From assembly GCF_044324785.1 (NCBI RefSeq), contig NZ_CP172127.1: a stretch of 64,000 nt of DNA, one strand, 5' to 3'. The stretch is from Escherichia coli. GTDB lineage: Bacteria; Pseudomonadota; Gammaproteobacteria; Enterobacterales; Enterobacteriaceae. The position numbers are program-made. This document shows positions 29,287 through 32,200 of this stretch, one piece after another. Each line of letters starts with the position of its first letter. Position 1 is the stretch's first letter.

Positions 29287-32200
29287 TAAGGACACGACAA
29301 TGACGATTTTTGATAATTATGAAGTGTGGTTTGTAATTGGCAGCCAGCATCTGTATGGCCCGGAAACCCTGCGTCAGGTCACCCAACATGCCGAGCACGT
29401 CGTTAATGCGCTGAATACGGAAGCGAAACTGCCCTGCAAACTGGTGCTGAAACCGCTGGGTACCACGCCGGATGAAATCACCGCTATTTGCCGTGACGCG
29501 AATTACGACGATCGTTGCGCTGGTCTGGTGGTGTGGCTGCACACCTTTTCCCCGGCCAAAATGTGGATCAACGGCCTGACCATGCTCAACAAACCGTTGC
29601 TGCAATTCCACACCCAGTTTAACGCGGCGCTGCCGTGGGATAGCATCGATATGGACTTTATGAACCTGAACCAGACTGCACATGGCGGTCGCGAGTTCGG
29701 CTTCATTGGCGCGCGTATGCGTCAGCAACATGCCGTGGTTACCGGTCACTGGCAGGATAAACAAGCCCATGAGCGTATCGGCTCCTGGATGCGTCAGGCG
29801 GTCTCTAAACAGGATACCCGTCATCTGAAAGTCTGCCGTTTTGGCGATAACATGCGTGAAGTGGCGGTCACCGATGGCGATAAAGTTGCCGCACAGATCA
29901 AGTTCGGTTTCTCCGTCAATACCTGGGCGGTTGGCGATCTGGTGCAGGTGGTGAACTCCATCAGCGACGGCGATGTTAACGCGCTGGTCGATGAGTATGA
30001 AAGCAGCTACACCATGACGCCTGCCACACAAATCCACGGCGAAAAACGACAGAACGTGCTGGAAGCGGCGCGTATTGAGCTGGGGATGAAGCGTTTCCTG
30101 GAACAAGGTGGCTTCCACGCGTTCACCACCACCTTTGAAGATTTGCACGGTCTGAAACAGCTCCCTGGTCTGGCCGTACAGCGTCTGATGCAGCAGGGTT
30201 ACGGCTTTGCGGGCGAAGGCGACTGGAAAACTGCCGCCCTGCTTCGCATCATGAAGGTGATGTCAACCGGTCTGCAGGGCGGCACCTCCTTTATGGAGGA
30301 CTACACCTATCACTTCGAGAAAGGTAATGACCTGGTGCTCGGCTCCCATATGCTGGAAGTCTGTCCGTCGATCGCCGTAGAAGAGAAACCGATCCTCGAC
30401 GTTCAGCACCTCGGTATTGGCGGTAAAGACGATCCAGCGCGCCTGATCTTCAATACCCAAACTGGTCCGGCGATTGTCACCAGCCTGATTGATCTCGGCG
30501 ATCGTTACCGTCTGCTGGTTAACTGCATCGACACGGTGAAAACGCCGCACACCCTACCGAAACTACCGGTGGCGAATGCGCTGTGGAAAGCGCAGCCGGA
30601 TCTGCCAACCGCTTCCGAAGCGTGGATCCTTGCTGGTGGCGCGCACCATACCGTCTTCAGCCATGCGCTGAACCTCAACGATATGCGCCAGTTCGCCGAG
30701 ATGCACGACATTGAAATCACGGTGATTGATAACGACACCCGCCTGCCAGCGTTTAAAGATGCGCTGCGCTGGAACGAAGTGTATTACGGATTTCGTCGCT
30801 AAGTAGCTGCATCAGGTATGTAACGCCTGATGCGACGCTGACGCGTCTTATCAGGCCTACACGCTGCGATTATGTAGGCCGGGTAAGCAAAGCGCATCCG
30901 GCATTGTTTTCCCCCTCGCCCCTTTGGGGAGAGGGCCGGGGTGAGGGGAAACGACCTCTCAGGAGTCAACATGTTAGAAGATCTCAAACGCCAGGTATTA
31001 GAAGCCAATTTGGCGCTGCCAAAACATAACCTGGTCACGCTCACCTGGGGCAACGTCAGCGCCGTTGATCGCGAGCGCGGCGTCTTGGTGATCAAACCTT
31101 CCGGCGTCGATTACAACGTCATGACCGCTGACGATATGGTCGTGGTCAGCATCGAAACCGGTGAAGTGGTTGAAGGTACGAAAAAGCCCTCCTCCGACAC
31201 GCCAACTCATCGGCAGCTCTATCAGGCATTCCCGTCCATTGGCGGCATTGTGCATACGCACTCCCGCCACGCCACCATCTGGGCGCAGGCGGGCCAGTCA
31301 ATTCCGGCAACCGGTACCACCCACGCCGACTATTTCTACGGCACCATTCCCTGCACCCGCAAAATGACCGATGCGGAAATCAACGGCGAATATGAATGGG
31401 AAACAGGAAAAGTGATCGTCGAAACCTTCGAAAAACAGGGAATCGACGCAGCACAAATGCCCGGCGTTCTGGTCCATTCTCACGGCCCGTTTGCATGGGG
31501 CAAAAATGCCGAAGATGCGGTGCACAACGCCATCGTGCTGGAAGAAGTCGCTTATATGGGGATTTTCTGCCGCCAGCTTGCTCCGCAGTTACCGGATATG
31601 CAGCAAACGTTGCTGGATAAACATTATTTACGTAAGCATGGTGCGAAGGCATATTACGGGCAGTAATGACTGTATAAAACCACAGCCAATCAAACGAAAC
31701 CAGGCTATACTCAAGCCTGGTTTTTTATTGGATTTTCAGCGTGGCGCAGGCAGGTTTTATCTTAACCCGACACTGGCGGGATACCCCGCAAGGAACCGAA
31801 GTTTCCTTTTGGTTAGCGACGGACAGCGGGCCGTTGCAGGTTACGCTTGCACCGCAAGAGTCCGTGGCCTTTATTCCCGCCGATCAGGTTCCCCGCGCTC
31901 AGCATATTTTGCAGGGTGAACAAGGCTTTCGCTTGACGCCGCTGGCGTTAAAAGATTTTCACCGCCAACCGGTGTATGGCCTTTACTGTCGCGCCCATCG
32001 CCAGTTGATAAATTACGAAAAGCGCCTGCGTGAAGCTGGCGTTACCGTCTACGAGGCCGATGTGCGCCCGCCAGAACGCTATCTGATGGAGCGGTTTATC
32101 ACCTCACCGGTGTGGGTCGAGGGTGATATGCGCAATGGCGCTATCGTTAATGCCCGTCTGAAACCGCATCCCGACTATCGTCCGCCGCTCAAGTGGGTTT

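Follow-up and report, generated by a model that had tools for sequence, protein, structure and literature searches.

The GC-rich near-palindrome between araA and araD in a 64,000-nucleotide stretch of Escherichia coli DNA (NCBI RefSeq assembly GCF_044324785.1, contig NZ_CP172127.1; the whole stretch is hereafter the window) is one copy of BoxC, a GC-rich interspersed repeat of intergenic regions in E. coli and some other Enterobacteriaceae, also known as PIT and TMECO. The element, CCCTCGCCCCTTTGGGGAGAGGGCCGGGGTGAGGGG, occupies positions 30913-30948 on the + strand and is very probably a strain-variable copy of this known repeat with no dedicated regulatory role for araD; its family identity can be read directly, whereas its neutrality is what we infer. 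An earlier sequence-only reading had described a stable stem-loop inside the araBAD transcript, just upstream of the araD ribosome-binding site, that might stabilize or process the mRNA or modulate araD translation. The physical part of that description stands: the two strings that it quoted, CCCTCGCCCCTTTGGGGAGAGGG and CCGGGGTGAGGGG, are present on the + strand at 30913-30935 and 30936-30948, the core ends 12 nt 5' of the araD Shine-Dalgarno (SD) sequence, and a stable stem-loop is predicted within the transcription unit, at -23.0 kcal/mol for the 36-nt core RNA and -29.6 kcal/mol for 30900-30960.

The core is not a plain palindrome. It comprises a C-rich block, CCCTCGCCC (30913-30921), followed by two direct-repeat G-rich blocks, GGGAGAGGG (30927-30935) and GGGTGAGGG (30939-30947), with the C-rich block able to pair with either of the two. 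The TMECO consensus, 5'-CCCTCNCCC N3-6 GGGNGAGGG N3 GGGNGAGGG-3' (Holder et al. 2015, PMC4666352), written as a regular expression, matches 30913-30947 on the + strand and nowhere else in the 64 kb. TMECO is the motif earlier named BoxC and then PIT (PMC4666352), in a line of work that runs from Bergler 1992 and Bachellier in the 1990s (as cited) through Hoyne/Maher 2000 to Holder et al. 2015 (PMC4666352). BoxC copies are divided by their second loop into type A, with TTA, and type B, with CCG (PMC4666352). The window copy has CCG at 30936-30938, placing it in type B, and a G/A mismatch in the first pairing makes it 'mm'. All 36 nucleotides are identical to those of K-12 MG1655 TMECO no. 3 (282101-282136, yagA/yagE intergenic, re-read from NC_000913.3), of HS TMECO no. 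63 and of W3110 TMECO no. 39, as well as to the oligonucleotide named 'type B mm' in Table S9 of PMC4666352, which has been studied by circular dichroism (CD), melting and nuclear magnetic resonance (NMR).

The araA-araD locus is itself already in the published catalogue, listed by its coordinates in strain HS and not by gene name. Gene names searched in the supplement of Holder et al. gave no match; the locus was found through the coordinates of HS TMECO no. 63 (Table S8, 68444-68479), which fall inside the HS araA-araD spacer (68422-68589, 168 nt), 23 nt from the araD start. In the window, the araBAD genes and the parts of the spacer are arranged as follows.

27589-29289, + strand: araB, named from the annotation under E. 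coli matches of 98.5% identity.
29300-30802, + strand: araA, L-arabinose isomerase, the upstream gene; an open reading frame (ORF) of 500 amino acids, named from the annotation under the same 98.5%-identical matches.
30803-30970, + strand: araA-araD intercistronic spacer, 168 nt, with length and architecture as in E. coli CFSAN018748 and HS.
30805-30903, + strand: REP/BIME cluster with one copy of the unit, containing nested inverted repeats I1, I2, I4 and I5 and ending in ...GCGCATCCGGCA.
30904-30960, + strand: segment specific to the BoxC allele, 57 nt, made of TTGTTTTCC, the 36-nt core and AAACGACCTCTC; by allele alignment it replaces the CGA of BoxC-less alleles.
30913-30948, + strand: core of the BoxC/PIT/TMECO element, of type B by its CCG second loop and with a single mismatched triplet; assigned by the consensus expression and by identity to catalogued copies.
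30961-30965, + strand: araD SD, AGGAG, invariant in all aligned E. coli alleles; its first base is the right breakpoint of the putative insertion.
30971-31666, + strand: araD, L-ribulose-5-phosphate 4-epimerase, starting at an in-frame ATG within the ORF 30941-31666 and annotated as araD in matching genomes.

The wider genomic record of the element is that of a dispersed repeat. A 59-nt query around it had hits in 5,387 of the 5,426 complete E. coli genomes searched; the median per genome is 16 places and the maximum 34, with unannotated DNA under the listed hits. Twelve K-12 copies from ten sites were fetched, and all of them are intergenic and have the core and short flank features in common. 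Like the type B copies of K-12, the window copy has a T-rich left flank (...TTTTCC) and a right flank with GAAA/GAAC, and in an identity test the core and flanks aligned with other BoxC copies. At 57 nt, the allele-specific segment, whose ends are fuzzy, makes the spacer 54 nt longer than in the 114-nt allele and agrees with the length of 56 bp cited for BoxC in PMC2267715. No other direct or inverted copy of the element occurs within the 64-kb window, as expected at ~20 copies per genome. Further K-12 copies lie between the co-directional genes pstA and pstB (3908495-3908530; one copy, lying antisense to these genes) and between lldD and trmL (3781028-3781156; an inverted type A/type B pair), so a position between co-directional genes is not unique to ara. 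Nothing usable came of literature searches for pst-operon BoxC copies and for REP sequences in araA-araD.

The repeat is variable at this site. Spacers of five E. coli genomes were aligned with the window, and carriers were counted among the same 5,426 complete genomes with a junction-specific query (30921-30995, at least 80% coverage). The BoxC-araD junction is present in 1,568 of them (29%), and conservation across strains, on which the sequence-only reading depended, is thus largely lacking. The whole 241-nt architecture was found in 1,565 genomes, i.e., nearly all carriers have one structure. In non-carriers, the match begins exactly at 30961, the first base of the SD, and on the left it ends at 30903 or 30905. 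The aligned E. coli spacers show four architectures: a 114-nt allele with one REP/BIME unit and no BoxC (the ST131-type strain uk_P46212), a 168-nt allele with one unit and BoxC (the window and CFSAN018748), a 199-nt allele with two units and no BoxC, and a 284-nt allele with three units and no BoxC (strain KE47, with the same length in K-12). Carriers include HS, O26:H11, O111:H8 and O8:H28 strains, one enterotoxigenic strain and bovine Shiga toxin-producing strains. At this spot, BoxC is absent from K-12, ST131-type and O157-type (O157:H7) strains, from E. albertii and from a cryptic Escherichia clade, which have one to three copies of the 85-nt REP/BIME unit instead.

Two genomes outside E. 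coli give the polarity of this difference. E. albertii (114-nt spacer) and Escherichia sp. MOD1-EC7003 (284-nt spacer) both lack BoxC and have the junction CCGGCA-CGA-AGGAG, and their araBAD identities to the window, 92% and 95.8%, respectively, make them true outgroups; the BoxC allele is therefore most simply read as a derived insertion in a subset of E. coli. The near-uniform architecture of the carriers suggests a single origin, between the last REP and the araD SD. The junctions do not fit a simple insertion with target-site duplication, which we rejected, as CGA is either replaced or kept internally with six extra nucleotides. Possibly 57 nt were inserted and CGA was lost; alternatively, since the internal junction of multi-unit alleles has GGCATT as well, a second REP unit may have been replaced.

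We propose that ~57 nt would have been inserted once, in an ancestor of this subset of E. coli, between the last spacer REP and the araD SD, and that the copy would since have been co-transcribed with araBAD. In the mRNA, a strong hairpin would form between the C-rich block and one or other of the G-rich blocks, and the araD ribosome-binding site would stay as accessible as in BoxC-less alleles. At most, the hairpin would form a redundant barrier to 3'-to-5' exonucleases beside the existing REP hairpins.

The adjoining REP/BIME unit has a period of 85 nt, and one, two or three copies give the 114-, 199- and 284-nt alleles. Its copy number varies independently of BoxC, and the outgroups also vary (one copy in E. 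albertii, three in MOD1-EC7003). Positions 30805-30903 hold GC-rich imperfect palindromes in a tandem unit that is multi-copy, with a median of eight matching places per genome, and which we take to follow the classical REP consensus. Hits of the REP-derived Rfam family naRNA4 on the neighboring REPs are weak (33.4 bits, E = 4.6e-4, below the gathering score), and no repeat features are listed in the K-12 RefSeq record. The first REP stem (30803-30833) begins 6-7 nt after the araA stop codon. REPs within ~15 nt of a stop codon reportedly depress translation of the gene before them by ribosome stalling and tmRNA (Liang, Rudd and Deutscher 2015), and REP hairpins reportedly impede 3'-to-5' exonucleases in malEFG (Newbury et al. 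1987). RNase R and REP are the subject of PMC2777011.

Against the reading of BoxC as a passenger stands the possibility, in our judgment unlikely, that the element is a functional RNA stem-loop, acting as a decay barrier, a processing site or a means of tuning araD translation and so setting AraD relative to AraB and AraA in carriers. A stable hairpin is indeed predicted, abutting the SD, and REP hairpins are established as barriers to 3'-to-5' exonucleases. The fold of 30900-30960 is nevertheless unexceptional for its composition, with z = -1.17 and 25 of 200 dinucleotide shuffles folding at least as well, and with DNA folding parameters the z of the element is -0.6 to -1.4. The whole spacer (30803-30970) folds at -75.4 kcal/mol with z = -4.0, most of which is contributed by the left-hand REP hairpins. 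In a near-equivalent fold of the whole spacer, block 2 is the partner of block 1, and block 3 is paired to the 3' flank CCUCUC. The element is, in addition, missing from 71% of E. coli genomes, K-12 included, and every E. coli allele examined has REP hairpins adjoining the site, which would make a barrier role for the BoxC hairpin redundant.

The signals that such a stem-loop could carry were not found. The hairpin is followed by GAAACGACC and not by the direct T/U run that, after a GC stem-loop, marks an intrinsic terminator or attenuator, and no intrinsic-terminator-like or sigma-70-like promoter sites were found in the spacer 30803-30970. A permissive E-value scan gave no match near the gathering score to any curated Rfam family over the element; the best hit, Antizyme_FSE on the - strand (15.4 bits, E = 3.4), is at chance level. 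The canonical G-quadruplex motif, (G3+ N1-7) x4, has a single + strand match in the window, the G-rich half GGGGAGAGGGCCGGGGTGAGGGG (30926-30948), but an RNA G-quadruplex was rejected, as the hairpin at -23.0 kcal/mol beats the quadruplex at -12.6 kcal/mol (G-rich half alone; ViennaRNA model). The only other match to this motif in the window, at 8228-8259 on the - strand, consists of spaced TGGGN repeats, is not BoxC and lies just 5' of an mraZ-like ORF; these repeats presumably resemble the MraZ operator repeats.

To compare accessibility of the ribosome-binding site, we calculated the partition function of the spacer, flanked by 40 nt of araA and 45 nt of araD, in six alleles. The mean unpaired probability of the SD is 0.36-0.43 in all six alleles, and opening positions -18 to +12 is predicted to cost 5.3-5.5 kcal/mol where BoxC is present (two alleles) and 6.6-7.7 kcal/mol where it is absent (four alleles). 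Occlusion of the SD by the BoxC hairpin was rejected, since these accessibilities show no reduction. In published experiments on the family, summarized in PMC4666352, the repeat acted neither as a promoter nor as a terminator and left RNA polymerase and reverse transcriptase unaffected, and BoxC copies show no bias in orientation, distance to ORFs or operon position (PMC4666352). The claim of a dedicated araBAD regulatory signal thus gives way to that of a dispersed BoxC copy, held by a minority of genomes, with unchanged predicted access to the ribosome-binding site and without a terminator or promoter site.

Part of the case for a function comes from other Enterobacteriaceae. Species-representative genomes were scanned once with a degenerate araD-start pattern, giving 52 loci, 51 of them enterobacterial. 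The 51 enterobacterial araA-araD spacers are 47-284 nt long, and nearly all, across 51 other species of the family, have a recognizable GC-rich palindrome, although the palindrome families differ. Together with that of the window, these spacers are predicted to fold more stably than their shuffles, with a median z of -3.9 and 77% below -2. REP/BIME-type spacers occur in Escherichia, Salmonella, Citrobacter, many Enterobacter and Buttiauxella. BoxC-type spacers, often with an inverted type A/type B pair, occur in the Klebsiella oxytoca complex, K. indica, Phytobacter, Kluyvera, Pseudocitrobacter, Enterobacter sp. ENT03 and Buttiauxella brennerae, and the single BoxC-type copies in other genera have the same orientation as in the window and lie 19-24 nt from the ATG. 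In Atlantibacter, Silvania, Leclercia, Huaxiibacter and one Citrobacter freundii strain, a hairpin and T-run stand directly before the araD SD; these spacers are 50-60 nt long, with the T-run ending at the SD (e.g., ggcctgccgcagggcgggccttttttcctGGAGG), and look like an intrinsic terminator or attenuator inside the operon. Strict motifs number 1-2 per K. oxytoca genome and 83-143 in most of the E. cloacae genomes listed (range 12-132; E. asburiae 143) (Table S1, PMC4666352). An araA-araD pair of enterobacterial type, with a REP between the two genes, was also found on a contig labeled Chryseobacterium sp. 18061, which is probably a contaminant in that assembly. A match in Thaumarchaeota, with no araA upstream, was rejected as a chance match to the pattern.

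Several of these observations, and others from E. coli, weigh against simple neutrality or against the insertion model. All 7 TM-like matches to the regular expression in 453 kb of fetched loci lie inside the araA-araD spacer and none elsewhere, so that BoxC-type elements recur in the same spacer across genera with none in ~450 kb of flanks, a distribution that fits poorly with pure neutrality. This recurrence hints at selection for a structured spacer or at a site preference of the repeat, but several of the occurrences are related by descent. The element is strongly conserved where it occurs, with 1,298 records at least 99% identical over 59 nt, which may reflect recent origin rather than constraint. 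A hairpin of -23 to -30 kcal/mol ending 12 nt before the SD could still, on the predicted energies, alter mRNA decay, processing or translation. The insertion also turns the five nucleotides just 5' of the SD from CACGA to CUCUC, and the flank CCUCUC can pair with a G-rich block. Finally, the insertion is itself a reading of the allele comparison, and no target-site duplication is visible at the junctions.

A broader form of the functional argument is that the spacer is under Enterobacteriaceae-wide selection for a stable hairpin before the araD ribosome-binding site, with REP/BIME, BoxC and terminator-like hairpins as interchangeable fillers. The BoxC insertion would then be the swap or addition of a functional module that shifts AraBA:AraD stoichiometry or operon mRNA decay, and BoxC would prefer, or be retained at, structured operon spacers. 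We regard this as a speculative proposal with rather little probability, about that of the functional stem-loop in E. coli.

A different proposal places the effect in the DNA. Under the genome-plasticity hypothesis of Holder et al. 2015, the non-template G-rich strand would transiently fold into a triplex during replication or transcription and make the locus a rearrangement hotspot, which would be its sole function. CD, melting and NMR experiments showed that in vitro the G-rich strand of this very 36-mer folds stably into an intrastrand purine-motif triplex, and strain-to-strain variation is greater at TMECO loci than at control loci (PMC4666352); the araA-araD spacer, at 114, 168, 199 or 284 nt, is polymorphic as well. 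The length variation is, however, that of REP/BIME copy number, with its 85-nt period, and it is also seen in lineages that never had BoxC (E. albertii and MOD1-EC7003), while the BoxC allele is nearly monomorphic in architecture (1,565 versus 1,568 genomes). In addition, the triplex was detected neither in duplex DNA by CD/NMR nor by an in vivo dimethyl sulfate (DMS) footprint, and purine-motif triplexes do not form in RNA (introduction of PMC4666352). We consider a role of this kind improbable, slightly more so than an RNA function. A GC-rich palindrome arisen by chance, or a piece left over from the neighboring REP, in either case without family relationship, can practically be dismissed as an explanation: the local fold is not significantly more stable than in shuffles, but the element bears no sequence relationship to the REP unit, it is one of a multi-copy family with identical copies elsewhere in E. 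coli, and 100 shuffles of the window gave 0 matches within three mismatches.

BoxC as a strain-variable repeat thus remains our preferred account, and its significance at this locus is small, the family having been described in the 1990s and its biophysics in 2000 and 2015. The present analysis adds the gene link (a copy between araA and araD whose segment ends at the SD), the allele frequency in 5,426 genomes and the polarity from two outgroups. For users of araBAD sequences from non-K-12 strains, the spacer may differ, 168 versus 284 nt, and the locus offers a natural, clean allele pair for testing the effect of BoxC on a polycistronic mRNA. Downstream of araD lie polB and then rapA, named from annotated E. 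coli matches with 98.5% identity over 8 kb; this is the identity of the closest match to the ara-polB-rapA region (window 27500-35500) among the 5,426 complete E. coli genomes. The window nevertheless stands far nearer to E. coli than to MOD1-EC7003 (95.8%) or E. albertii (92%), and it may come from a lineage outside this genome set, such as Shigella or an uncommon E. coli lineage.

Compared with known systems, the element is closest to BoxC/PIT/TMECO itself, with which it shares the exact consensus, an identical 36-nt core, an intergenic and multi-copy occurrence, a length of ~56 bp, strain variability and a catalogued locus in HS. There is no sequence difference; the window copy differs in being single and not an inverted type A/type B pair. 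Its setting is an operon spacer, where it abuts an SD and adjoins a REP/BIME cluster, and it is without the right-side GCGC/GCAC outer inverted flank of many K-12 copies. It resembles REP/BIME elements, e.g., that of malE-malF, in being GC-rich, palindromic, intergenic, transcribed within an operon, predicted to form stable RNA hairpins and variable among strains, and it shares a spacer with them. The two are nonetheless unrelated sequence families, as BoxC has one C-rich and two G-rich blocks and is triplex-capable, whereas REP is a simple stem-loop. We know of no RAYT-type transposase or protein partner for BoxC and of no demonstration that it stabilizes mRNA. Lastly, the G-rich half of the element fits the canonical motif of the G-quadruplexes found near bacterial ribosome-binding sites, but it has an adjacent complementary C-rich block, the hairpin is favored in the model, and published NMR of the DNA oligonucleotide argued for a triplex and not a quadruplex (PMC4666352).

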